Shown one piece after another: positions 3,188 through 61,643 of a DNA stretch of 64,000 nucleotides. Numbering within the stretch: position 1 is the first letter of the stretch; each line of letters opens with the position of its first letter. The stretch lies in the sequence record PZ402301.1, one strand, 5' to 3'. The stretch is from a phage. Made by a program: the position numbers and the translations under genes. A model generated the notes under the pieces. It was not told the origin of the DNA. It saw only the letters and a program-made list of their open reading frames with translations, and made no database searches.

Positions 3188-3207
3188 GGGAGAGCCTCGG
3201 CTCTCCC
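3188..3207 (-). terminator. GC-rich stem-loop followed by T-run (minus strand)
   Basis: gggagagcc-tcgg-ctctccc hairpin immediately downstream of the small ORF at 3214. Confidence 0.5.
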
Positions 3208-5917: not shown

Positions 5918-6136
5918 TCATTTTACACCATTCCAAATTGTTTCAACCACAGATTTTAAGCCATTTTGATGAATGTCCATTCCGACAACTGCCATCAAAT
6001 AGATTCCAACTACAGCTGAACCTAAGGCGAAAATCAGCATGAAAATGAATAAAGCTGGAAAAATATTATCGAAAAACCATTCCATAAATGTAAAAGCACT
6101 ACGTTTACGCTTCATATTTTCCTCACATAAATCCAA
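5918..6136 (-). CDS. hypothetical membrane protein (72 aa)
   Basis: Minus-strand ORF with a hydrophobic core (IFPALFIFMLIFALGSAVVGIYLMAVVG). Confidence 0.4.
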   Translation of the reverse strand: MDLCEENMKRKRSAFTFMEWFFDNIFPALFIFMLIFALGSAVVGIYLMAVVGMDIHQNGLKSVVETIWNGVK

Positions 6137-6236
6137 AATAAGCGTTTAATACATCAATCATTAAAACGATTGGGAATATACTCAAAACTACTAGTATTAT
6201 AACTACATTCCATATAGCTTTAACAATCTTTTTCAT
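6123..6236 (-). CDS. tiny membrane peptide (37 aa)
   Basis: Internal ATG with GAGGAA SD just downstream of the promoter at 6243-6290; the 82-aa track ORF 6123..6371 runs through that promoter and is probably over-extended. Confidence 0.4.
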   Translation of the reverse strand: MKKIVKAIWNVVIILVVLSIFPIVLMIDVLNAYFGFM

Positions 6237-6242
6237 TTTCTG

Positions 6243-6290
6243 TTCCTCTGTAGTTGATAGGGTAATAATACCACAGAGGAACAGTCTTGT
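6243..6290 (-). promoter_or_regulatory. early promoter inside an inverted repeat
   Basis: Minus strand: GTTTAC, 18 nt, TATTAT; the spacer (ctgttcctctg) is complementary to the downstream SD region (cagaggaacag); near-identical copy at 60104-60150. Confidence 0.55.
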
Positions 6291-6479
6291 AAACAACTTT
6301 TTTAAAAATATTCGTAATAAATGTGAATGCCAATCACTACTGCCGAAACTTGCGCAACCCACCATGCACAAGCAATAAGTACAGAATTCAAAATTTTCAT
6401 AATAACCTCATCACAAAAGTAAATGTTAAACAAATTAATGGAATACTAATTAACCAAATAAAACACCACCACAATGAAC

Positions 6480-6972: not shown

Positions 6973-7040
6973 TATCAGTTGATAGTTGTATAGTACCACA
7001 GTCCTTGTGGTATGTAAACCGTTTTGTGAAATTTTTTAAA
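6973..7040 (-). promoter_or_regulatory. T4-type early promoter
   Basis: Copy of the conserved block (UP region, GTTTAC, TGGTACTATACAACT, then GGAGAATAAAATG). Confidence 0.55.
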
Positions 7041-7855: not shown

Positions 7856-7873
7856 AATTTTTCCTTAAAACAA

Positions 7874-7890
7874 AAGGGCCGAAGCCCCTT
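7874..7890 (-). terminator. GGGC-UUCG-GCCC tetraloop hairpin (minus-strand RNA)
   Basis: Plus-strand gggccgaagccc followed by a T-run, directly downstream of the ORF ending at 7894. Confidence 0.5.
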
Positions 7891-7893
7891 ATT

Positions 7894-8088
7894 TTATTTA
7901 AATTGTGCAATTCTTTTCTCTAAACAATCCGCGTAAGATTTCATTGAGATGAACTGCGAAAGCAACAGTTCTTGCTCAACTGCATTAACCGTTGAAAACT
8001 TTTCACTTTCTAAAAATTTGCTCAGTGCATTAATTTTGAGCATTAATTGATCGTATTCTTCTTTTACTCGTGCTTGATAACCTAACAT
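7894..8088 (-). CDS. hypothetical protein (64 aa)
   Basis: Minus-strand ORF bracketed by two UUCG hairpins. Confidence 0.45.
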   Translation of the reverse strand: MLGYQARVKEEYDQLMLKINALSKFLESEKFSTVNAVEQELLLSQFISMKSYADCLEKRIAQFK

Positions 8089-8102: not shown

Positions 8103-8118
8103 AAGGGCCGAAGCCCTT
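8103..8118 (-). terminator. UUCG tetraloop hairpin downstream of rIIB
   Basis: Plus-strand gggccgaagccc followed by a T-run, just past the rIIB stop. Confidence 0.5.
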
Positions 8119-9055
8119 ATTTAAATTGTTCAGTAACGTCTTCAACTACTTCGTATTGGCAGGTACGCATTTTAGCGTCGTTATAATCAATCGGAATTGA
8201 TACTACATCGCGAGGATGTACTTTAACTTTTACAACTCGGCTGGTTGAACTGCCAAAGTGACGAATATAAGATTTAGAACACACATGCAGACCACGAGAA
8301 CAAGTTTGTGTATCATCGTCATTCACACGAGTACGTGGCATTTTAACTACTTTGCCAGGACTGTTATCAAAAGTATTTGAATGACAGTCAAAGTAATTAC
8401 TGCGAACTACTTTCCAAGCATAGAAGTAACCGTCTTCTGTAATTTCAATATCGTTTGCTACCAAAAAATCAAAGAGTCGAGATACTGCTTTTTGGCTTGG
8501 GTTTTCCAGCAGATTTTCCAAGAACGGAAAATAAAATTCAAAGTTTTCGCCTTTTTCCATCGAATCAAGAATACGATCAACTAAACCAGATCGCAATTCA
8601 ATATTTTGATAGAACAAGCTTCCACCTTCAATTCGAACATCACCGGAAATATATTTTTCAACAGCGCGACGAACGTTAATTTTTTGCGCTGCTTCTTCCA
8701 ATTTATCTGCAACAAGCAGATTAAGAATTTCTTGGAAGTTTGAATGAGTATTAGGAGTTGCGTTATAAGTTACACCGTCAACAGTAATTGAAATGAATTT
8801 TTTAGATGCATTCCAAATAATGTCAGATTTAGCAACTGGAGCAATAGCTGCATCGCTCTTAACTGTAACTGTAATGTCACCGCTAATGGTAACTTTGGAG
8901 CGCTCAGCTTCTTCAGCATTTTTCAAAACACGACGGATTGTGTCAACCGATACACCTTGCCAATCAGCCAATTCCTGTTGGGTATAATTACCACTTGAAT
9001 ACAATTTAACAATTTCAGCTTGTTCGTTTTTGGTCAGGCATTTAATATTGTACAT
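8117..9055 (-). CDS. rIIB: rIIB protein
   Basis: 312 aa, the T4 rIIB length, immediately downstream of rIIA. Confidence 0.85.
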   Translation of the reverse strand: MYNIKCLTKNEQAEIVKLYSSGNYTQQELADWQGVSVDTIRRVLKNAEEAERSKVTISGDITVTVKSDAAIAPVAKSDIIWNASKKFISITVDGVTYNATPNTHSNFQEILNLLVADKLEEAAQKINVRRAVEKYISGDVRIEGGSLFYQNIELRSGLVDRILDSMEKGENFEFYFPFLENLLENPSQKAVSRLFDFLVANDIEITEDGYFYAWKVVRSNYFDCHSNTFDNSPGKVVKMPRTRVNDDDTQTCSRGLHVCSKSYIRHFGSSTSRVVKVKVHPRDVVSIPIDYNDAKMRTCQYEVVEDVTEQFK

Positions 9056-11483: not shown

Positions 11484-11513
11484 ATTATACCGCATCCTTG
11501 TGGTAAAGTAAAC
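11484..11513 (-). promoter_or_regulatory. early promoter (GTTTAC ... TATAAT)
   Basis: Minus-strand GTTTAC overlapping the gp39 stop, then an 18-nt spacer and a perfect TATAAT. Confidence 0.55.
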
Positions 11514-13333: not shown

Positions 13334-13382
13334 TTATCCTCGTTTGGTTTCGGGAATATTATACTCCGGTAATCATAAAGCT

Positions 13383-13400
13383 AAAGGCCCGAAGGCCTTT
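13383..13400 (-). terminator. UUCG-type hairpin
   Basis: aaaggcc-cgaa-ggccttt followed by a T-run. Confidence 0.5.
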
Positions 13401-13657
13401 TATTTAAAACGGATAGTTGAATCCTTAAAGAACAGCCCAGAACACACAGTTCCTTCTACTTTCTGCCCGGTAGGTCCAATAGCACGAAATCCAGTATGCT
13501 GGAAATCATTTTCAGAGCAACCGAACCAGTTGTATCCAGTGATTTCAATATTAGTAAAACCGCTTGAAGACAAAACTTTGGTTGCGTTATCAGCATCAGT
13601 ACATCCTACTAAAGATACTGCTAATACTAATGCCGCGATAGAACGATTAACATATTT
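13400..13657 (-). CDS. predicted lipoprotein
   Basis: Signal peptide with lipobox (MKYVNRSIAALVLAVSLVGC); start taken at the internal Met. Confidence 0.45.
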   Translation of the reverse strand, partial: KYVNRSIAALVLAVSLVGCTDADNATKVLSSSGFTNIEITGYNWFGCSENDFQHTGFRAIGPTGQKVEGTVCSGLFFKDSTIRFK

Positions 13658-15135: not shown

Positions 15136-15232
15136 TTTATTCTCCAAGTTATTTTCTGTATCAGTAGTTGATATTGATATAGTACCATAATCAACTACTG
15201 ATGTATATAGTTTTATGAAAAAATTTTAAACT

Positions 15233-15730: not shown

Positions 15731-15806
15731 AGTTATCTCTCACTTGTTAAAAAGATTTTATACTCCACGGGACCATTATACTCTGATCCCAAGAGTTTGT
15801 AAACTA

Positions 15807-16852: not shown

Positions 16853-16864
16853 TTTATTATCCTC

Positions 16865-16915
16865 AGTAGCTATGATGTTATAATACCACAACTAACCGAG
16901 GAAGTAAACAACTTT
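16865..16915 (-). promoter_or_regulatory. early promoter (GTTTAC, 18 nt, TATTAT)
   Basis: Minus strand GTTTACttcctcggttagttgtggTATTAT; the spacer carries a UCCUC anti-SD complementary to the downstream GAGGA. Confidence 0.55.
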
Positions 16916-21195: not shown

Positions 21196-21815
21196 TCAAC
21201 TACCTCGATATCATACACTTTAAATGTTCCAAATGAATCGTGTAATTTTTCTTTTGAAATAGAAGTTATTTTATACTTTCCAATTGGAATCATCCATTCT
21301 TGTTCACGTACAATCATCATTAAGTTATCAGTACGTTCTGAATCTAATCCATCAGTATCTTCATATGTATACTTAAACTCAGTATTAGGAGAAGAAAGTA
21401 TAATATCGCTGATATGGTCAGAGTAATTAAAAGCTTTATCAGTTTTTAAGCGAAATATTATTTCAGTGGAATATTCAACATAAGAAAAACCGCATGCTGT
21501 GTGCAAACTAGTAGTAAATGAATCTACTCTGTTCGTTGAAAACACTTCTCCAACTTGTAAATCTTTAATGAGTTCTTTTGTCGATTTTGATATACCACGA
21601 TATAACTGATAAGGTGATTCAGTTAAATGCTTTTTAACGATTTTATTCAACTGCCGATGAAGAGCTTCATTCTTTTTGGCTTCCATACATTGCCAAAGAA
21701 CTGACTGTTCAAAGTCAGTAAATTTTTCACAGACCTTTTTATACATATCATATTGAAAATCGACACTTTCAGCTTTTATAGATAACTGTTCAACATCTGC
21801 AAGATTAATAATCAT
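21192..21815 (-). CDS. modB: ADP-ribosyltransferase ModB
   Basis: R (LYRG) and E-x-E (EQEWMIP) motifs; start taken at the ATG with GGAGG SD, giving 207 aa (track ORF runs to 21827). Confidence 0.6.
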   Translation of the reverse strand: MIINLADVEQLSIKAESVDFQYDMYKKVCEKFTDFEQSVLWQCMEAKKNEALHRQLNKIVKKHLTESPYQLYRGISKSTKELIKDLQVGEVFSTNRVDSFTTSLHTACGFSYVEYSTEIIFRLKTDKAFNYSDHISDIILSSPNTEFKYTYEDTDGLDSERTDNLMMIVREQEWMIPIGKYKITSISKEKLHDSFGTFKVYDIEVVE

Positions 21816-21882
21816 GATAGCCTCCATATACTTCAGAAGCTATCATATCATTGTTAGGAAGGAAAGTAAACAACTTTTTGAA

Positions 21883-24018: not shown

Positions 24019-24264
24019 TTATTCACCAGTTACTTTCCACAAATCTTCGTTTGCAGCAATCCACGCAGCGCGTTGATTTTCTTCATATACTGTAGAATAT
24101 GCTGCTTTTTCTGAAGGGAATGTCTGGTAATGAGCGCCAGAAATTTTGTGAACGTCAGAATAAAGAGGGAAAGCTACAGAAATTTCCTTTCCTTCAATTT
24201 TCTTATTTCCATCTAATTTCTGCTCAAACGTTTTGATATTAACATAACCGCGAGTACTAGCCAT
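24019..24264 (-). CDS. soc: small outer capsid protein Soc
   Basis: 81 aa (MASTRGYVNIKTFEQ...) with the T4 Soc length and position, and a late-promoter motif upstream. Confidence 0.75.
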   Translation of the reverse strand: MASTRGYVNIKTFEQKLDGNKKIEGKEISVAFPLYSDVHKISGAHYQTFPSEKAAYSTVYEENQRAAWIAANEDLWKVTGE

Positions 24265-24292
24265 GTAATTCTCCTTTTATTTAAATTACATG

Positions 24293-24305
24293 ATTATTTA
24301 TAATA
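24293..24305 (-). promoter_or_regulatory. late promoter (TATAAATA) for soc
   Basis: Plus-strand tatttata, i.e. TATAAATA on the minus strand, about 30 nt upstream of the soc start. Confidence 0.5.
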
Positions 24306-24346
24306 ATTCTCGCGGCTTTTAAGTCGTCGTTTAAATAAACAAGCTA

Positions 24347-26265: not shown

Positions 26266-26274
26266 TATATTATC

Positions 26275-26325
26275 CTCAGCAGTTTATTTTATAATACCAC
26301 AACAAGCTGAGAAAGTAAACAAATT
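26275..26325 (-). promoter_or_regulatory. early promoter (GTTTAC, 18 nt, TATTAT)
   Basis: Minus strand GTTTACtttctcagcttgttgtggTATTAT; the spacer (ctcagc) is complementary to the downstream gctgagga SD region. Confidence 0.55.
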
Positions 26326-28738: not shown

Positions 28739-28822
28739 TTTCTTTTCTCCGCGATTAGCTGATAGAATTACTATAACACAACTCTATCAGCTTGTAAACT
28801 ACTATTTTACTAGCATCAATAA

Positions 28823-29228: not shown

Positions 29229-29286
29229 AACAATCTCCTCATTTAACCAACAAGACTACTATACCATAGTCTTGTCAGCTTGTAAA

Positions 29287-34710: not shown

Positions 34711-34776
34711 ATCAGTTGATAGTTGTATAGTACCACAAAGGAACCGGGATGTAAACAGTTTTGTGAAAAAATTTTT
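34711..34776 (-). promoter_or_regulatory. T4-type early promoter
   Basis: Copy of the conserved block (UP region, GTTTAC, TGGTACTATACAACT). Confidence 0.55.
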
Positions 34777-37607: not shown

Positions 37608-37628
37608 TTGATATATTATACTCCAAAT

Positions 37629-37646
37629 AAGGGGCCGAAGCCCCTT
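37629..37646 (-). terminator. UUCG tetraloop hairpin
   Basis: ggggccgaagcccc followed by a T-run, between the 87-aa ORF and the gene 43 leader. Confidence 0.5.
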
Positions 37647-37648
37647 GC

Positions 37649-37912
37649 TTAAATTAATACCATTTGTCGGTGAAAAATTGTCAATCCATCTGCATTAATT
37701 GACTTAACCACTGCGGTAAAGTGTTTTTGTTCTGGGTGAACTAATTTTTGAAATTCTACCTGAAATTTTAGTTGGAGATTTTCTGGTAAATCAAAAAGTG
37801 TTTCTGTTGCAGAAAGATTATATTTTTCTTTAAGAGACGCCATGTATTCTTGTGGGGTTATAGCAGTCATATTAATTACCAATCGTATATTTTGGAACGA
37901 GTTTCCATTCAT
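37649..37912 (-). CDS. hypothetical protein (87 aa)
   Basis: ORF filling the 300-bp regA-43 gap; its 5' end overlaps the regA 3' end by about 40 nt; weakly supported. Confidence 0.3.
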   Translation of the reverse strand: MNGNSFQNIRLVINMTAITPQEYMASLKEKYNLSATETLFDLPENLQLKFQVEFQKLVHPEQKHFTAVVKSINADGLTIFHRQMVLI

Positions 37913-39766: not shown

Positions 39767-39798
39767 AATTTCCTCATTCAAGTTTTAGTGTAAATTAT

Positions 39799-39816
39799 AA
39801 AGGGCCGAAGCCCTTT
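39799..39816 (-). terminator. UUCG tetraloop hairpin downstream of gene 45
   Basis: aaagggccgaagcccttt followed by a T-run. Confidence 0.5.
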
Positions 39817-39817
39817 A

Positions 39818-40504
39818 TTAAAAGTCGTGGGTAGAATCAGCTTCAAGAGCTACTACATAATTCGCGTGTTCACCTTCAAATTTAGCAGCACCTTGTTTAC
39901 CTTTTGCCCAGAGCAGAAGTTTATAATTTCCTGGTTGCATTTTCATATTTGCCATATTGATAATGAAATTAAATGTATTTTCACCATCATAATCACCAAG
40001 AGTCAAAGAATATTTAACACGGGTCAAAGCAGAATCTTCTACTTTATTAAAACCGTTAATTACGATTTTACCTTCTTTTACTGTGATAGCAATTGTATCA
40101 ATCTGCAGACCGCGAGATACACGCAACAGCTGTTGAAGGTCTTCAGCTTTAATTTCAGTAACAACAGATGCTACCGGGAATGGAATTGGTTTATTAGGAG
40201 CAACTACTGTACTCGGATCAGCTGCTGGCCAAAAAATTGTTGAACGGGCATCAGCAATTTTAATATTTCCATCTTCTGACTGGGAAATTTCTGCATCGTC
40301 ATTAACTAGAGACAGAATACCGAGAAAACCGTTCAAATCGTAAATCGCTACATCAAAATCAATAGTGTCAGAAATATTTGCTTCTGCATAAGTTGTACCA
40401 TTAACCGCGCGAGTCATAATAAATTGACCGGATTTAAGCATAATACCAGAGTTAATAGTAGCGAAATTTTTGAGCAGAGCAGTGGTATCTTTAGACAGTT
40501 TCAT
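39818..40504 (-). CDS. 45: sliding clamp gp45
   Basis: 228 aa with the T4 gp45 length and position. Confidence 0.85.
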   Translation of the reverse strand: MKLSKDTTALLKNFATINSGIMLKSGQFIMTRAVNGTTYAEANISDTIDFDVAIYDLNGFLGILSLVNDDAEISQSEDGNIKIADARSTIFWPAADPSTVVAPNKPIPFPVASVVTEIKAEDLQQLLRVSRGLQIDTIAITVKEGKIVINGFNKVEDSALTRVKYSLTLGDYDGENTFNFIINMANMKMQPGNYKLLLWAKGKQGAAKFEGEHANYVVALEADSTHDF

Positions 40505-44485: not shown

Positions 44486-44508
44486 TATATCAAACTCCGT
44501 ATAAAGCT

Positions 44509-44526
44509 AAAGGGCCGAAGCCCTTT
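44509..44526 (-). terminator. UUCG tetraloop hairpin downstream of alpha-gt
   Basis: aaagggccgaagcccttt followed by a T-run. Confidence 0.5.
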
Positions 44527-45727
44527 ATTTTGTAATAATGTCAAACTGTTCTTTAAAGCAGAAGCTTGAATCTTGATGCTGATACAAAAATTCATAAGCT
44601 TTTTCGCGTTCACGGTCATAAAGAGCTCGGTCAGATGACAGTTCTTTAATACGCTCAAATGTTGATTCCATGTCATTTTCATCAAACCAAACGATACCGC
44701 TATCATGAGAAATTAACGGAGTATTATCAACACGGAATTTTAAATTTTCGCCAGTAGATTTCCAAAATACTGGAATTGTTCCACATGCACCAAGCTCGAG
44801 ATGAGTGTATTCTAAAGAACGTTGCAGATATTTTTTGTCCAACTTGCTCAGCTGATAACCAAATCCGGATTTACTCATGCGTTCAAGCATTTCGCTATTT
44901 ACATAACGGTCAAGAATTTGCGTCGGCAAATTAGGAGCAATTTTAATTTGGTCTACTTGATGAAGACGATAATACTCGTATGGAATTCCTTTTTCTTTAA
45001 TAGGAATGAACGCTGGAGAACGTTCCAGACCTTCCATAATAGTACTTAGTCCTGCAGGTTTAAGATGTTTTTCGTGAAAATCAAACATCTGATAAAAGCC
45101 TTTCCATGTAGTAGTACGACCAATCCAACGGTTGATATTCATGTTAATTTCAGAAACATCTTTCCAGTAGGTTGATCGAACTTTCGCAATATCCATAGGA
45201 GGCTGGAAGTTATATACGGTCGGTGCTTCTTCAATATCATCAAACAAAGAAACTGTTTCTGGATACCATTCTTTCATTAAAACTTTATTAAAATCACCAT
45301 TATCAGAATGGCTAAAAATAACATCAGCTCGACGAACAGTTTCTTCTAATCCCAAATTTCGGCGTAAAGAAAGAGAAGAATGGTCATGCTGATAAACTAC
45401 AACACGAACCGAAGGTTTAATGTTATCAATAATTTTTTTATAGTTATTAATCGTGTCTTCTTCGACTGAAGTAGCAGGAACTGAATTGATAATTAGAATA
45501 TCACAATCATTTACCAGCTTAAGGGTTTTATCGTATTCTTTTGCCAATAAAACCGGAATTGAAAATGACTTATAATCATGTGCGCAATTACGAGTAAAAG
45601 ATTTATCTTTAGCATAAACCAAAGTTACTTCATGACCATTTTTAATAAACCAATCACGCTGCTCAAGAGAAAATTTAGTTACACCACAACCTTCAAGACC
45701 TCGAGCCATAAAAATGCATACTTTCAT
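44525..45727 (-). CDS. a-gt: DNA alpha-glucosyltransferase
   Basis: 400 aa at the T4 alpha-gt position with a GT-B-like layout. Confidence 0.7.
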   Translation of the reverse strand: MKVCIFMARGLEGCGVTKFSLEQRDWFIKNGHEVTLVYAKDKSFTRNCAHDYKSFSIPVLLAKEYDKTLKLVNDCDILIINSVPATSVEEDTINNYKKIIDNIKPSVRVVVYQHDHSSLSLRRNLGLEETVRRADVIFSHSDNGDFNKVLMKEWYPETVSLFDDIEEAPTVYNFQPPMDIAKVRSTYWKDVSEINMNINRWIGRTTTWKGFYQMFDFHEKHLKPAGLSTIMEGLERSPAFIPIKEKGIPYEYYRLHQVDQIKIAPNLPTQILDRYVNSEMLERMSKSGFGYQLSKLDKKYLQRSLEYTHLELGACGTIPVFWKSTGENLKFRVDNTPLISHDSGIVWFDENDMESTFERIKELSSDRALYDREREKAYEFLYQHQDSSFCFKEQFDIITK

Positions 45728-48150: not shown

Positions 48151-48166
48151 AAGGGCCGAAGCCCTT
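48151..48166 (-). terminator. UUCG tetraloop hairpin
   Basis: gggccgaagccc followed by a T-run. Confidence 0.45.
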
Positions 48167-48365
48167 AGCTAAACTGTTTGGCACCCTTCCAGCCTTCGTA
48201 CATCATTGCAGCTGATATTAATATTGCTCCTGCGCATTTTGAATATTTGTGATTCCAAAACCAGTTCAGAAAAACTTCGTCATCAATACCTTGGGCTATC
48301 ATATTTTCAAAGAACTGGCGACGAGCTTCAGCAATTCGTTGCGATAATTTAGATTCAGGATTCAT
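48165..48365 (-). CDS. hypothetical protein (66 aa)
   Basis: Minus-strand ORF. Confidence 0.4.
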   Translation of the reverse strand: MNPESKLSQRIAEARRQFFENMIAQGIDDEVFLNWFWNHKYSKCAGAILISAAMMYEGWKGAKQFS

Positions 48366-50537: not shown

Positions 50538-52428
50538 TGGTGTTTAACCCTATGCATGATTTCTTTATTTTTGCCAAGATTAAATCCGCGCTCGTTCGGA
50601 TTTCCCAAATAACCGCAAGTTCTTCTTATGGTGTTCATCTTTTTAGGATCAGTTTCTCCACAAATAGAACAAACAAATCCGTTTTCAGTAGGAGTCATTT
50701 CATGGGTACTTCCGCATGTAAAACATTTATCTACTGGCATATTAACACCAAAATAATCTAAATGTTGTGCAGCATAATCCCATACAGCCTCAAGACCTTT
50801 TAGGTTATTTTTCATATCAGGAAGTTCAACATAAGAAATGTGACCACCTGTCGCAATGAAATGATACGGAGCTTCGCGAGAAATCTTTTCAAACGGAGTA
50901 ATATTTTCTTCTACTGAAACGTGGAAACTGTTAGTATACCAGCCTTTATCGGTAACATCTTTTACACTTCCATATTTTTCGGTATCAAGTTTACAGAAGC
51001 GATAGCACAGGTTTTCAGCAGGAGTAGAATATAAGCTAAAAGCAAAACCAGTTCTTTCAGTCCATTGTTTAAGATGAATATTCATTTTAGTTAAAATTTC
51101 TTGTCCAATATCACGACCGACAAGAATATTCAATTCGTGAATACCAATGTATCCTAGGGACACTGAACTTCTACCGTTTTTAAATAACTCAATTATATCG
51201 TCATCAGGTTTAAGACGAACCCCGAATGCACCTTCTTGATAAAGAATAGGAGCAACAGTAGCTTTAACCCCTTTTAAGGAACTAATTCTACACATCAAAG
51301 CTTCAAAACATAAATCCATTCGCTCATTGAACAATTCAGTAAATTTCTGTTCATTGAACTGTGTTCCAATATAAGAATCTAACGCAATACGAGGAAGATT
51401 CAGTGTTACAACACCAAGATTATTACGTCCATCAAGAATTTCATTACCAGTCGAATCTTTCCATACGCCCAAGAAACTACGACAACCCATTGGAGAAACA
51501 GGAATAGATGAACCGGTGATAGCTTTATTGTTCTTAGCCGAAATGATGTCAGGATACATTCTTTTACTTGCACACTCTAGAGCAAGCTGCTTAATATCAT
51601 AGTTCGGATCGTCTTTATAAAGATTAACACCTTCTTCAACGAACATAACAAGTTTAGGGAAAATAGGAGTTATCCCGTCACGACCAAGGCCTTTAATACG
51701 ATTTTTCAGAATTGCTTTCTGAATCATTCGTTCAGTCCAGTCAGTTCCCATGCCAAATGTAATTGTTACAAAAGGCGTTTGTCCGTTTGAACTAAAGAGA
51801 GTATTTATTCAGTCCAGTCAGTTCCCATGCCAAATGTAATTGTTACAAAAGGCGTTTGTCCGTTTGAACTAAAGAGAGTATTTAGTTCATATTCATAAGC
51901 TTGGAATGCATCGTATACGTCTTTTTCTGTTTTAGATTGGGCATAATTCAACGCATCAGCGATTTGCCATTTTTCTGCATCCTCAATATGTTTTGCATAG
52001 GTGCGTTTAACATAAGGAGAAAGGACTTTATCTACATTCGCAAAAGTCGTTCCACCATATTGATGGGAAGCAACCTGTGCAGTAATTTGTGCCATAATTG
52101 CAGTAGCAACACCGATTGATTTAGGAGTTTCAATCTGTGCATTACCGAGCTTAAATCCGTTCTCAAGCATTCCTTTTAAATCTACTAAACAGCAATTAGT
52201 AAATGGAAGAGCAGGGGAATAATCAATATCATGGAAATGAATAATTCCGCTTTCATGCGCTTTCATAATAAAAGACGGGACCATATTTTTGGCAATGTGT
52301 TTAGACACAATACCAGCCATAAGGTCCCGTTGAGTTGGAAAAACACGAGAATCTTTATTAGCATTCTCGTTTAAAAGGTCTTTATTAGTTTTATGAATCA
52401 ATCCTTCAATTTCTTTTTCAATTGTCAT
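50534..52428 (-). pseudogene. nrdD: anaerobic ribonucleotide reductase nrdD, split by a frameshifting tandem duplication
   Basis: Two collinear ORFs (207 aa and 405 aa): the first ends ...FGMGTDWTE and the second begins MGTDWTERMIQ; the C-terminal part carries the glycyl-radical motif (RRTCGYLG) and a Cys4 zinc ribbon. Confidence 0.7.
51731..51884. repeat. perfect 77-bp tandem direct duplication inside nrdD
   Basis: ttcagtccagtcagttcccatgccaaatgtaattgttacaaaaggcgtttgtccgtttgaactaaagagagtattta occurs twice in tandem; 77 is not a multiple of 3, and the junction creates an in-frame TAA. Confidence 0.8.
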
Positions 52429-57114: not shown

Positions 57115-57170
57115 TTAATCTCCTCAGTAGAAAGTAAGAACATTATACCACATCCTTGTGGCAAAGTAAA

Positions 57171-59568: not shown

Positions 59569-60096
59569 TTATGCGAGTACCGTCTTTAACCGTTCTTCAA
59601 ACTTCCGAAGAGTATTTTGGCGTTCAGCTCTTTGCTTTTTGTAAGTTTCAATACGCTCTGAAATGAGAGTGTATCGTTCATTTACTGATTCTTTCATAAA
59701 ATCAGGAATTTCACGAGAAGCTTTAATCTCGTCAAATTTATCAATAACAGCTTGCTCTTCAGCAATTAAGTTATCATACATTAAAATATCTTTCTTGATG
59801 AACTCAATATCTTCTTGAGTTACACGAGATAATTTAGATGCTTTATCCTTTTTGTACTGTTCGTTAGTATCACGAGACCAGTGTAATGTACGATTTTTAT
59901 TCGTATTTTTGTAAATTTCTACAATACCAATCTCATCAATAATAACGATCCAATTCCAACGGGATTTGTAAATTTGTCCTCCATCAACTGTGATTTCACC
60001 TCCGATTGAGATGTCGTTAAAGAACTTGCTTTGTGCTTCAGATTTAAATTTACCATCGTTGTAATTTACCAAGTTGAAAATATCTTTAGCGTTCAT
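59569..60096 (-). CDS. hypothetical protein with coiled-coil tail (175 aa)
   Basis: ATG preceded by GGAGGAACAGAAA; tail ERIETYKKQRAERQNTLRKFEERLKTVLA. Confidence 0.5.
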   Translation of the reverse strand: MNAKDIFNLVNYNDGKFKSEAQSKFFNDISIGGEITVDGGQIYKSRWNWIVIIDEIGIVEIYKNTNKNRTLHWSRDTNEQYKKDKASKLSRVTQEDIEFIKKDILMYDNLIAEEQAVIDKFDEIKASREIPDFMKESVNERYTLISERIETYKKQRAERQNTLRKFEERLKTVLA

Positions 60097-60103
60097 TTTC
60101 TGT

Positions 60104-60150
60104 TCCTCCGTAGTTGATAGTTGTATAGTACCACAGAGGAACAGTCTTGT
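60104..60150 (-). promoter_or_regulatory. early promoter inside an inverted repeat
   Basis: Near-identical copy of the 6243-6290 module (GTTTAC, TGGTACTATACAACT, flanking ctgttcctc / gaggaacag inverted repeat). Confidence 0.55.
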
Positions 60151-60156
60151 AAACCA

Positions 60157-60471
60157 CTAAAAGAAACTTCTTTCACAATTTTTTCCACTGAACCATGCAC
60201 TTACCGCTTTCTTAGTCTCGGGAGCAGTGTTATCCATAAACCATTCAAAGGCAGCCTTTTTATGATTCTGGAGGGCTTCTCGGGCTTTAATCTGCTCACG
60301 GTCTATTAACACTAACATATGAGCCTTTCTTGTCACCATGGGCTTCTTATGATTTTTTGAATATTCCCAGTCATTTGTCCATCGCATTGTCGTTGCGAAC
60401 TGAAATACTGCTTCTTTAATTTTAGTTTCGTAAATTTCACGAGCCTTTGAGTATAACATCACTACCTCCAT
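60157..60471 (-). CDS. hypothetical protein (104 aa)
   Basis: Minus-strand ORF. Confidence 0.45.
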   Translation of the reverse strand: MEVVMLYSKAREIYETKIKEAVFQFATTMRWTNDWEYSKNHKKPMVTRKAHMLVLIDREQIKAREALQNHKKAAFEWFMDNTAPETKKAVSAWFSGKNCERSFF

Positions 60472-61547: not shown

Positions 61548-61615
61548 ATCAGTTGATAGTTGTATAGTACCATAAAGCTTTATGCCTGTAAACCGTTTTG
61601 TGAAAAAATTTTAAA
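61548..61615 (-). promoter_or_regulatory. T4-type early promoter
   Basis: Copy of the conserved block (UP region, GTTTAC, TGGTACTATACAACT). Confidence 0.55.
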
Positions 61616-61623
61616 ATAAAAAA

Positions 61624-61641
61624 GGGAGCCCGAAGGCTCCC
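61624..61641 (-). terminator. UUCG-type hairpin
   Basis: gggagcc-cgaa-ggctccc followed by a T-run, downstream of the ORF ending at 61644. Confidence 0.5.
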
Positions 61642-61643
61642 TA

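Follow-up and report, generated by a model that had tools for sequence, protein, structure and literature searches.

Two early promoters in a 64,000-nucleotide (nt) stretch of phage DNA (sequence record PZ402301.1; the whole stretch is referred to below as the window), those of the genes ndd.4 and nrdC.8, were found to have a spacer between their -35 and -10 elements that is complementary to the Shine-Dalgarno (SD) region of the gene that follows. The best-supported explanation, which we consider probable, is that RNA reading through from upstream would be silenced by the hairpin formed in this way, while RNA starting at the gene's own promoter would be translated. Sequence geometry, predicted folds, and evolutionary pattern were computed here; where transcription starts, whether and how much read-through RNA exists, and how translation is affected are inferred from these results. 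The window derives from a Tequatrovirus with 96 to 99% identity to phages Killian, ime09, and their relatives (BLAST against phage genomes), and its genes span from about 52/ac/ndd through rIIB, rIIA, 39, motB, dda, modA/B, soc, 56, 61, and 41 to the nrdC region. The early genes of the window lie on the minus strand, and thus the plus-strand strings in which the repeats had originally been described are the reverse complements of the functional strand. Small open reading frames (ORFs) of unknown function occur in both the ndd-denB and the nrdC regions. The gene behind the first site, ndd.4 (6123..6236, minus strand), encodes a 37-amino-acid predicted inner-membrane peptide (T2 and T4 annotation; phrog_3098), and the gene behind the second, nrdC.8 (59569..60096, minus strand), encodes a 175-amino-acid protein (phrog_2274), with PHROGs giving only "unknown function" for ndd.4, nrdC.8, and nrdC.9. 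About 590 GenBank genomes carry the ndd.4/nrdC.8 module, and both modules are also present in T4 itself.

Spacer-SD complementarity in two early promoter cassettes

On the minus strand, site 1 (6294 to 6234) reads GTTTACA-agaCTGTTCCTCTGTGG-TATTAT-taccctatca-ACTACAGAGGAACAG-aaa-ATG, and site 2 (60154 to 60094) reads GTTTACA-agaCTGTTCCTCTGTGG-TACTAT-acaactatca-ACTACGGAGGAACAG-aaa-ATG. Both are T4-type early promoters (GTTTACA, 17 nt, and TATTAT or TACTAT, with TGn) in which the spacer, aga-CTGTTCCTCTGTGG in both cases, is complementary to the SD region; the embedded promoter is of the early sigma-70 type, and neither site carries the signature of a late promoter. Site 2 differs from site 1 by TACTAT-acaact and by a single A-to-G change in the SD arm. 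The two modules share 90% identity over 67 nt (repeat search, family D4) and are flanked by unrelated genes, and the 11-mer of the repeat, allowing at most one mismatch, occurs in seven copies in the window versus 0.52 expected, a number reached in none of 100 shuffles, which confirms the earlier claim of near-identical modules 54 kb apart with a spacer complementary to the SD-containing 5' untranslated region (UTR). Plain complementarity between the arms extends over 12 bp, increasing to 15 bp as RNA when G.U pairs are included, with one extra U.G pair at site 2.

At site 1, the -35 element GTTTACA of the ndd.4 early promoter (6288..6294, minus strand; annotated as a promoter in T4 record X75802) is followed by the 5' arm CTGTTCCTCTGTGGT (6270..6284, minus strand), which lies within the spacer, covers the extended -10 (TGn), and extends to the first T of the -10 element. 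The -10 element TATTAT (6265..6270, minus strand) falls in the hairpin loop, transcription is predicted to start at ∼6258, and the 3' arm ACTACAGAGGAACAG (6240..6254, minus strand) contains the SD GAGGA (6244-6248) ahead of the start codon (6234-6236). At site 2, the corresponding elements are the -35 GTTTACA of the nrdC.8 early promoter (60148..60154, minus strand; supported by the SA20RB promoter annotation and by the -35/-10 signals in T4 record U76612), the 5' arm CTGTTCCTCTGTGGT in the spacer (60130..60144, minus strand), the -10 TACTAT in the loop (60125..60130, minus strand) with a predicted start at ∼60118, and the 3' arm ACTACGGAGGAACAG (60100..60114, minus strand) with the SD GGAGG (60105-60109) and the start codon (60094-60096). 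Both predicted starts were placed by the usual 7-nt spacing after the -10. The nearest upstream stop codons are that of a 32- to 43-amino-acid ndd.5-like ORF at site 1 (6302-6304) and that of nrdC.9 at site 2 (60157-60159); the gap between nrdC.9 and nrdC.8 is 60 nt and is filled by site 2.

The reference annotation of T4 places the start of ndd.4 differently: in NC_000866 (L077), where 337-465 corresponds to window 6123-6236, the annotated start is an ATG located 15 nt upstream, giving 42 amino acids. This upstream ATG, the product of a C-to-T change within the SD arm (ACTATGGAGG), is not preceded by a separate SD, and from the sequence the real start looks like the downstream ATG behind GGAGGA, corresponding to the 37-amino-acid form.

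Predicted folding of read-through and own-promoter RNA

In RNA that reads through from upstream, a 15-bp hairpin was predicted at both sites, with -23.9 kcal/mol (z score, -5.2) at site 1 and -28.5 kcal/mol (z score, -6.5) at site 2 for a 76-nt segment. The SD is wholly paired in this RNA at both sites, and the hairpin persists in 146-nt contexts. The loop holds the -10 element, whose first base is the last of the 5' arm, and predicted local transcripts lack this arm. RNA starting ∼7 nt after the -10 has virtually no predicted structure at site 1 (0 kcal/mol) and a weak one at site 2 (-7 kcal/mol). For ndd.4, partition function calculations gave a probability of an unpaired SD of ∼0.0005 in read-through RNA versus 0.73 to 0.82 in local RNA. 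These results agree with the original prediction that read-through RNA masks the SD and local RNA is open. The accepted T4 case of soc, used as a positive control in this window, yielded a structure of -23.1 kcal/mol over the SD/AUG, which is of the same scale as the new hairpins. The soc start itself (24264-24340, minus strand) shows a two-tier helix, the outer tier formed by GCCGCGAG...CTCGCGGTT and the inner by CATGTAATT...AATTACATG, with the late promoter TATAAATA at 24302 between the helix arms, so that the classical T4 arrangement is conserved in this phage. Rfam covariance models at gathering score gave no match in the whole window.

A paired SD could in principle also bear on RNA decay, with the hairpin shielding the SD GGAG of read-through RNA from T4 RegB or creating a processing site, and we consider such a role very unlikely. 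The RegB endoribonuclease cuts GGAG/U in SD regions of early mRNAs (PMC3014915). At site 2, the SD GGAGG would indeed be double-stranded in read-through RNA, but the SD of site 1 in the window is GAGGA, without GGAG. Moreover, a 15-bp stem is short for RNase III, which counts against RNA processing.

Structured early promoters among T4-type phages

To place the two sites in context, 126 distinct promoter-to-ATG sequences representing 52 gene groups were collected from the window, from T4-like DNA fetched via NrdC.8, from two pattern scans (IMG/VR and metagenomes, contributing 26 and 34 stretches, respectively, with few T4-like genomes), and from GenBank records. Compared with spacer shuffles, 43 of the 126 early promoters were structured at a P value of ≤0.01, where 1.3 would be expected, and the z scores of promoter-embedded hairpins ranged from -5 to -7.6. 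One explanation of such hairpins would be a chance by-product of the conserved promoter and SD consensus sequences, considering that the stem part GUGGU/ACUAC derives from the conserved extended -10 TGTGGTA and the start-of-transcript CAACTAC and that pyrimidine-rich TTCC/TCTCC words are common directly after the -35. When the conserved TGTGG was held fixed and only the variable 12 nt of the spacer were shuffled, however, 42 of the 126 promoters still reached a P value of ≤0.01. This count, the best rank of the cognate pairing in all six families compared (described below), and the 11-mer excess in the window led us to reject the consensus artifact, which we regard as extremely improbable.

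The 43 structured promoters fell mainly into two classes: the spacer pairs with the SD in 20 and with the -10/discriminator, leaving the SD out, in 22. In the SD class (seven gene groups), the probability of an unpaired SD was ≤0.04 in read-through RNA, 0.25 to 0.74 in local RNA, and 0.09 to 0.40 in shuffled-spacer controls. In the -10/discriminator class (11 groups), by contrast, it was 0.68 in read-through RNA, similar to that in local RNA, versus 0.41 in shuffled-spacer controls (P = 0.007), as if the hairpin insulated the SD from upstream sequence. The two hairpin classes are thus predicted to have opposite effects on read-through translation. The SD-free arrangement was also seen at many comparison loci in L013-L072. 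Outside the genus of the window, the spacer likewise pairs with the SD in Klebsiella phage KPV15 (Jiaodavirus), and the -10/discriminator pairs with the SD in Serratia phage PS2.

In six unrelated families of the SD class, the strongest pairing of every spacer was that with its own UTR (-21.0 kcal/mol for cognate versus -13.2 kcal/mol for noncognate combinations; best rank in six of six), and the permutation P value of 0.00125 is the minimum possible with six families. Moreover, sense RNA folds 5.2 kcal/mol better than antisense RNA, compared with 0.7 kcal/mol in shuffled-spacer controls, and 14% of the stem pairs are G.U. These sequence comparisons support selection of the spacer-SD pairing at the RNA level.

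Variation among orthologues and exchange of cassettes

Orthologous promoters keep complementary arms even where the arm sequences differ. For nrdC.8, the window has CTGTTCCTCTGTGGT/ACTACGGAGGAACAG and L009 has ATCTCCAGTAG/CTACTGGAGGT, and for motB.2, TTCCTCGG.../...CTGAGGA in the window corresponds to TTCTCCTCATG/CATGAGGAGAA in L013; in both cases the arms are different yet complementary. Between T4 ndd.4 and the window copy, one U-A pair is replaced by C-G (a double change), one C-G by U.G, and one G-C by G.U. Across 11 variants of the ndd.4/nrdC.8 family, every internal change keeps a standard pair, and 95.8% of the cells are paired.

The cassettes also show signs of exchange. The nrdC.8 locus of L007 has a -10/discriminator of the site 1 type, while ndd.4 of L035 has that of site 2; L007 and L035, like the chimeric cassettes L014 and L048 (discussed below), are orthologues of the promoters at window positions 34755, 60153, and 6293. 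The sequences fit crossovers in the conserved -10/CTATCAACT core, and cassette exchange explains why a module is shared by loci 54 kb apart. It could be asked whether the inverted repeat acts at the DNA level, either as a recombination module (by shuffling of promoter-early stem-loop [PeSL] cassettes or mini-circles) or as a cruciform or hairpin affecting the promoter, with the copies reflecting nothing but cassette copying. PeSL cassettes were defined in RB49/phi1 as early promoters with stem-loops in five positions, none of which reaches the SD (PMC2839356, Arbiol et al. 2010), and PeSL-mediated exchange has been proposed for the ndd.4/.5 region of T4 and PST (PMC4122927, Fig. 6A legend). 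The 90% identical modules beside unrelated genes, the swapped cores in L007 and L035, and the chimeras agree with such a role. However, recombination requires direct homology between cassettes rather than complementarity inside one, and exchange explains the likeness of the copies but not the inverted repeat in each; unrelated arm sequences, moreover, keep their cognate complementarity. The G.U share of the stem pairs argues against a DNA cruciform or symmetric palindrome, as does the 5 kcal/mol by which the sense strand outperforms the antisense strand in folding, a difference not seen in shuffled-spacer controls; both would be unexpected for a DNA structure, and T4 ndd.4 alone has three G.T positions in 15. 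Taken together, a DNA-level role appears unlikely.

Gene junctions and expected read-through

In the intervals separating sites 1 and 2 from the nearest early promoters upstream (7018 and 61592), the consensus scan detected no terminator-like site, and read-through is thus expected at both. The upstream stop codons lie 17 nt (site 1) and 12 nt (site 2) before the first paired base; given the ribosome footprint, a ribosome terminating there should not melt the stem. Hairpins acting on read-through RNA would be predicted at junctions that polymerase cannot avoid reading through. Structured promoters as a whole, both classes included, tend to abut the upstream gene, with a gap of ≤15 nt between the stop codon and the -35 in 16 of 18 structured versus 11 of 35 unstructured groups (Fisher P = 1e-4). 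An upstream terminator was found in 1 of 18 structured versus 9 of 35 unstructured groups (P = 0.14). Among the seven SD-class groups, six abut the upstream gene and one has an upstream terminator.

An intrinsic terminator reading of the hairpins themselves was rejected, based on the lack of a consensus-scan match at sites 1 and 2, the 15-nt loop, and the tail AAAAUGAA. No U-tract follows any of the structured promoters, the next 8 nt containing on average 1.3 to 1.8 T and at most 4. Typical T4 intrinsic terminators, namely, G+C-rich tetraloop hairpins with T-runs (AAGGGCCGAAGCCCTT and AGGGAGCCTTCGGGCTCCCT), are present elsewhere in the window, at 7866-7901, 8103-8130, 13376-13405, 37622-37651, 39792-39827, 44502-44537, 48151-48178, 61623-61642, and 3190-3203. 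Some of these read as terminators on both strands, and several are found directly in front of an early promoter, corresponding to the PeSL layout reported for PST/T4.

A possible generic stem-loop role and other points against SD masking

The main rival to SD masking, which we consider rather unlikely, is that a generic PeSL-type stem-loop acts on the upstream transcript, through transcription attenuation or pausing, 3'-end protection of the processed upstream mRNA, or cistron insulation, and that its overlap with the SD is incidental to fitting a 60-nt junction. PeSLs of RB49/phi1 have been proposed as terminators/attenuators, and one of them cut lacZ expression as much as rrnB T1 (PMC2839356). 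In agreement with a generic role, 22 of the 43 structured promoters leave the SD free, and both classes abut the upstream gene and seldom have a separate upstream terminator. Several points, however, do not fit. The absence of a U-tract after any hairpin and of a terminator at sites 1 and 2 speaks against termination. A 3' arm positioned over the SD entails a larger loop (15 nt) than pairing with the discriminator would, yet this arrangement recurs in at least six to seven unrelated families and in several genera. Lastly, a helix of -24 kcal/mol over the SD would be expected to block initiation on RNA containing both arms, whatever other role it may have.

Several observations weigh against SD masking itself. 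The finding that about half of the promoter-embedded hairpins miss the SD implies that masking cannot be their only role, and in L005 and L008 the hairpin at the orthologue of the nrdC.8 promoter does not involve the SD, the spacer pairing with the -10/discriminator instead. In the chimeric cassettes L014 and L048, an anti-SD spacer is followed by a UTR of unrelated sequence and no longer forms the hairpin; these natural orphan spacers indicate that the pairing is dispensable. In T4 nrdC.8 and several other copies, the outermost one or two pairs no longer form. Covariation within the 11 close ndd.4/nrdC.8 variants, which differ too little for it, is not significant, with only one pair altered in both partners, a value matched by 255 of 500 shuffles, and the argument for pairing draws on the comparisons between families and between orthologues instead. 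The local nrdC.8 leader is partly structured, with a probability of an unpaired SD of ∼0.3. The SD-class promoter of KPV15 lies right behind a strong terminator (AAAAAAGGACCTTCGGGTCCTTT; L073 375-470). Finally, the sequences entering the statistics are phylogenetically related, and P values derived from sequence counts are optimistic. As a separate observation, the co-occurrence of masking and an upstream terminator in KPV15 is an ill fit for a simple either/or picture of the two.

Other early promoters in the window

The window contains 21 early promoters, and when only the spacer of each was shuffled, 7 were more structured than their shuffles at a P value of ≤0.007 and 4 more at a P value of ≤0.05. 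According to the repeat search, other early promoters of the window carry their own, different inverted repeats at the same place. The SD class comprises ndd.4, nrdC.8, motB.2 (promoter at 16908), and, weakly, the promoter at 26319. The motB.2 early promoter (16860..16902, minus strand) has a spacer-SD hairpin of different sequence, TTCCTCGG.../...CTGAGGA, with -21.1 kcal/mol (P = 0.003 versus spacer shuffles), while the early promoter of a 186-amino-acid ORF (26319; 26273..26313, minus strand) has a weak 8-bp spacer-SD pairing, TTCTCAGC/GCTGAGGA, with -12.1 kcal/mol (P = 0.05). At the modB early promoter (21870; 21813..21847, minus strand), the SD and AUG pair with the -10/discriminator (GATAGCTTC/GGAGGCTATC) and not with the spacer (-15.4 kcal/mol), and the 5' arm is upstream of the predicted start. 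These three promoters had originally been listed as weaker versions of the repeat; the one at 16908 is in fact strong, the one at 26319 is marginal, and at 21870 the pairing of the SD/AUG stands but its attribution to the spacer does not.

In the remaining structured promoters described here, the SD is left out of the hairpin. These are the dmd early promoter (29286; 29245..29280, minus strand), with a hairpin between spacer and -10/discriminator (-18.9 kcal/mol); the early promoter of an 84-amino-acid ORF beside 61.4 (28798; 28757..28792, minus strand), with the spacer/transcript-start pairing AGCTGATAGA/TCTATCAGCT (-18.0 kcal/mol); a degenerate early promoter of an 89-amino-acid ORF (15207; 15160..15202, minus strand), with the 13-bp spacer/transcript-start hairpin ATCAGTAGTTGAT/ATCAACTACTGAT (-20.2 kcal/mol); and the motB early promoter (15803; 15762..15796, minus strand), with a spacer-discriminator hairpin (-21.8 kcal/mol). 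In addition, short palindromes fully within the spacer (CATAAAGCTTTATG, CCACAAGGATGTGG, and ACCACAAGGACTGTGGT) were observed at 61564-61592, 57142-57170, 6990-7018, and 11484-11512, and in the copy at 11512 (CCACAAGGATGCGG) full pairing is possible on the antisense strand only. Away from these promoters, a 77-bp unit occurs in two tandem copies with 97% identity at 51726-51879 (repeat family D8).

Comparison with known systems

Inhibitory structures over the SD are known in T4, as the original prediction stated; the examples comprise e, soc, 49, and I-TevI as well as I-TevII/III, segB, and Aeh1 mobE (PMC3014915, Uzan and Miller). In e and I-TevI, a late promoter starts transcripts within the structure, and translation is delayed until late in infection (PMC3014915). 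As in T4 e, soc, 49, and I-TevI, where upstream transcripts fold a helix over the SD and/or AUG and transcripts of the embedded promoter are without the 5' arm (PMC3014915), the arm complementary to the SD region at sites 1 and 2 precedes the predicted local start. Unlike e, I-TevI, and the soc copy of the window, which have a late promoter (TATAAATA) inside, ndd.4 and nrdC.8 embed a sigma-70-type early promoter, and the 5' arm is the -35/-10 spacer itself. The predicted effect would consequently be the mirror image of the delay in e and I-TevI, with translation confined to the earliest, own-promoter transcripts.

The second related system is the PeSL cassette. Its five stem-loop positions are the upstream AT-rich region, over the -35, between the -35 and -10, over the -10, and just before the start, and the stem-loops of RB49/phi1 are mostly between the -35 and -10 or over the -10 (PMC2839356). 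They have been read as terminators/attenuators and recombination sites (PMC2839356). In PST/T4, the stem-loops were placed just upstream of the promoter, with the ndd.4/.5 region serving as an example of cassette exchange (PMC4122927, Comeau et al. 2014). Sites 1 and 2 resemble PeSLs in that a strong sigma-70-like early promoter, which matches the PST/T4 consensus TTTACW-N17-TAYWAT (PMC4122927), is preceded by AT-rich sequence, is associated with a stem-loop, and leads to a 3'-terminal SD and ATG, all within an intergenic gap. They also share the location in hyperplastic regions beside small ORFs of unknown function, the repetition around the genome, and the exchange between copies. They differ in the placement of the 3' arm, which spans +5 to +19 with the SD inside and corresponds to none of the five positions, while the dmd and motB hairpins of the sister class do fit the position over the -10. 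Moreover, the stem-loops of sites 1 and 2 are inside the promoter, their stems are not G/C tracts, and they have no U-tract. The role proposed for PeSLs is termination/attenuation and recombination; that proposed here is translational masking.

T4 intrinsic terminators of the AAGGGCCGAAGCCCTT type are likewise stable intergenic hairpins next to early promoters, several of them just upstream (families D5 and D7), but their G+C-rich stem is closed by a tetraloop and followed by a U-tract, whereas the promoter-embedded hairpins have long loops holding the -10 and no U-tract. A further parallel may be found in the "fold-back inhibition" of IS10/Tn10, reportedly described by Davis, Simons and Kleckner in 1985, in which the 5' segment of transcripts entering from outside is said to pair with the transposase ribosome binding site, while transcripts from the element's own promoter start downstream of the pairing segment and are translatable. 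That system differs in belonging to a bacterial insertion sequence, in keeping transposase low, and in having a 5' arm that is not a promoter spacer. The present elements join two ideas, being PeSL-like early cassettes whose predicted stem-loop masks the SD. In terms of the folding model, they are an early-promoter version of a control already known for T4 late genes, within a wider class of promoter-embedded stem-loops. No earlier description of spacer-SD pairing at T4 early promoters, those of ndd.4, nrdC.8, and motB.2 included, was found in the literature searched, which mostly did not extend to older T4 work, so that prior notice is possible; nor did this literature yield relevant maps of T4 start sites. 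The main text of the T4 omics paper makes no mention of these genes.

Proposed mechanism and implications

Based on these results, each site may be regarded as a compact T4-type early-promoter cassette filling an intergenic gap of ∼60 nt, in which the 17-nt spacer, the sole unconstrained stretch upstream of the start, would have evolved complementarity to the SD region 30 nt downstream. A polymerase arriving from an upstream promoter would transcribe both arms, and the resulting 15-bp hairpin of about -24 kcal/mol would bury the SD and end 3 nt before the AUG, preventing ribosome initiation on ndd.4 or nrdC.8. A polymerase recruited locally would start in the loop, ∼12 nt downstream of the 5' arm, and produce a 22-nt open leader that could be translated. 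Synthesis of Ndd.4 and NrdC.8 would in this way be tied to their own early promoter and limited to a short pulse in the first minutes of infection, with later read-through RNA remaining silent for both genes.

For timed gene expression in phages, T4 serves as the reference, and promoters and terminators account only in part for the individual timing of its tightly packed small early genes. If the spacer encodes an anti-SD arm, translation would be tied to a gene's own promoter regardless of through-transcription, which would offer a simple means of producing small, possibly harmful proteins (for example, the membrane peptide of ndd.4) in a brief pulse. PeSL cassettes, so far discussed as promoters, terminators, and recombination sites, would gain a new function, and the arrangement could provide a design rule for insulating genes in compact synthetic operons. 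Promoter annotation by the -35 and -10 alone would miss information that is moved between genes on cassette recombination. Taking both hairpin classes jointly, a broader and more doubtful proposal is that the early-promoter spacers of T4-type phages are programmable RNA arms that decide the fate of RNA from upstream: the spacer-SD class may silence read-through translation and so create own-promoter-only genes with a brief immediate-early pulse, and the spacer-(-10/discriminator) class may form a closed hairpin that keeps upstream sequence off the SD. If this were true, post-transcriptional information would form a second layer in about one-third of early promoters, and recombination of cassettes would carry it from gene to gene along with the promoter.

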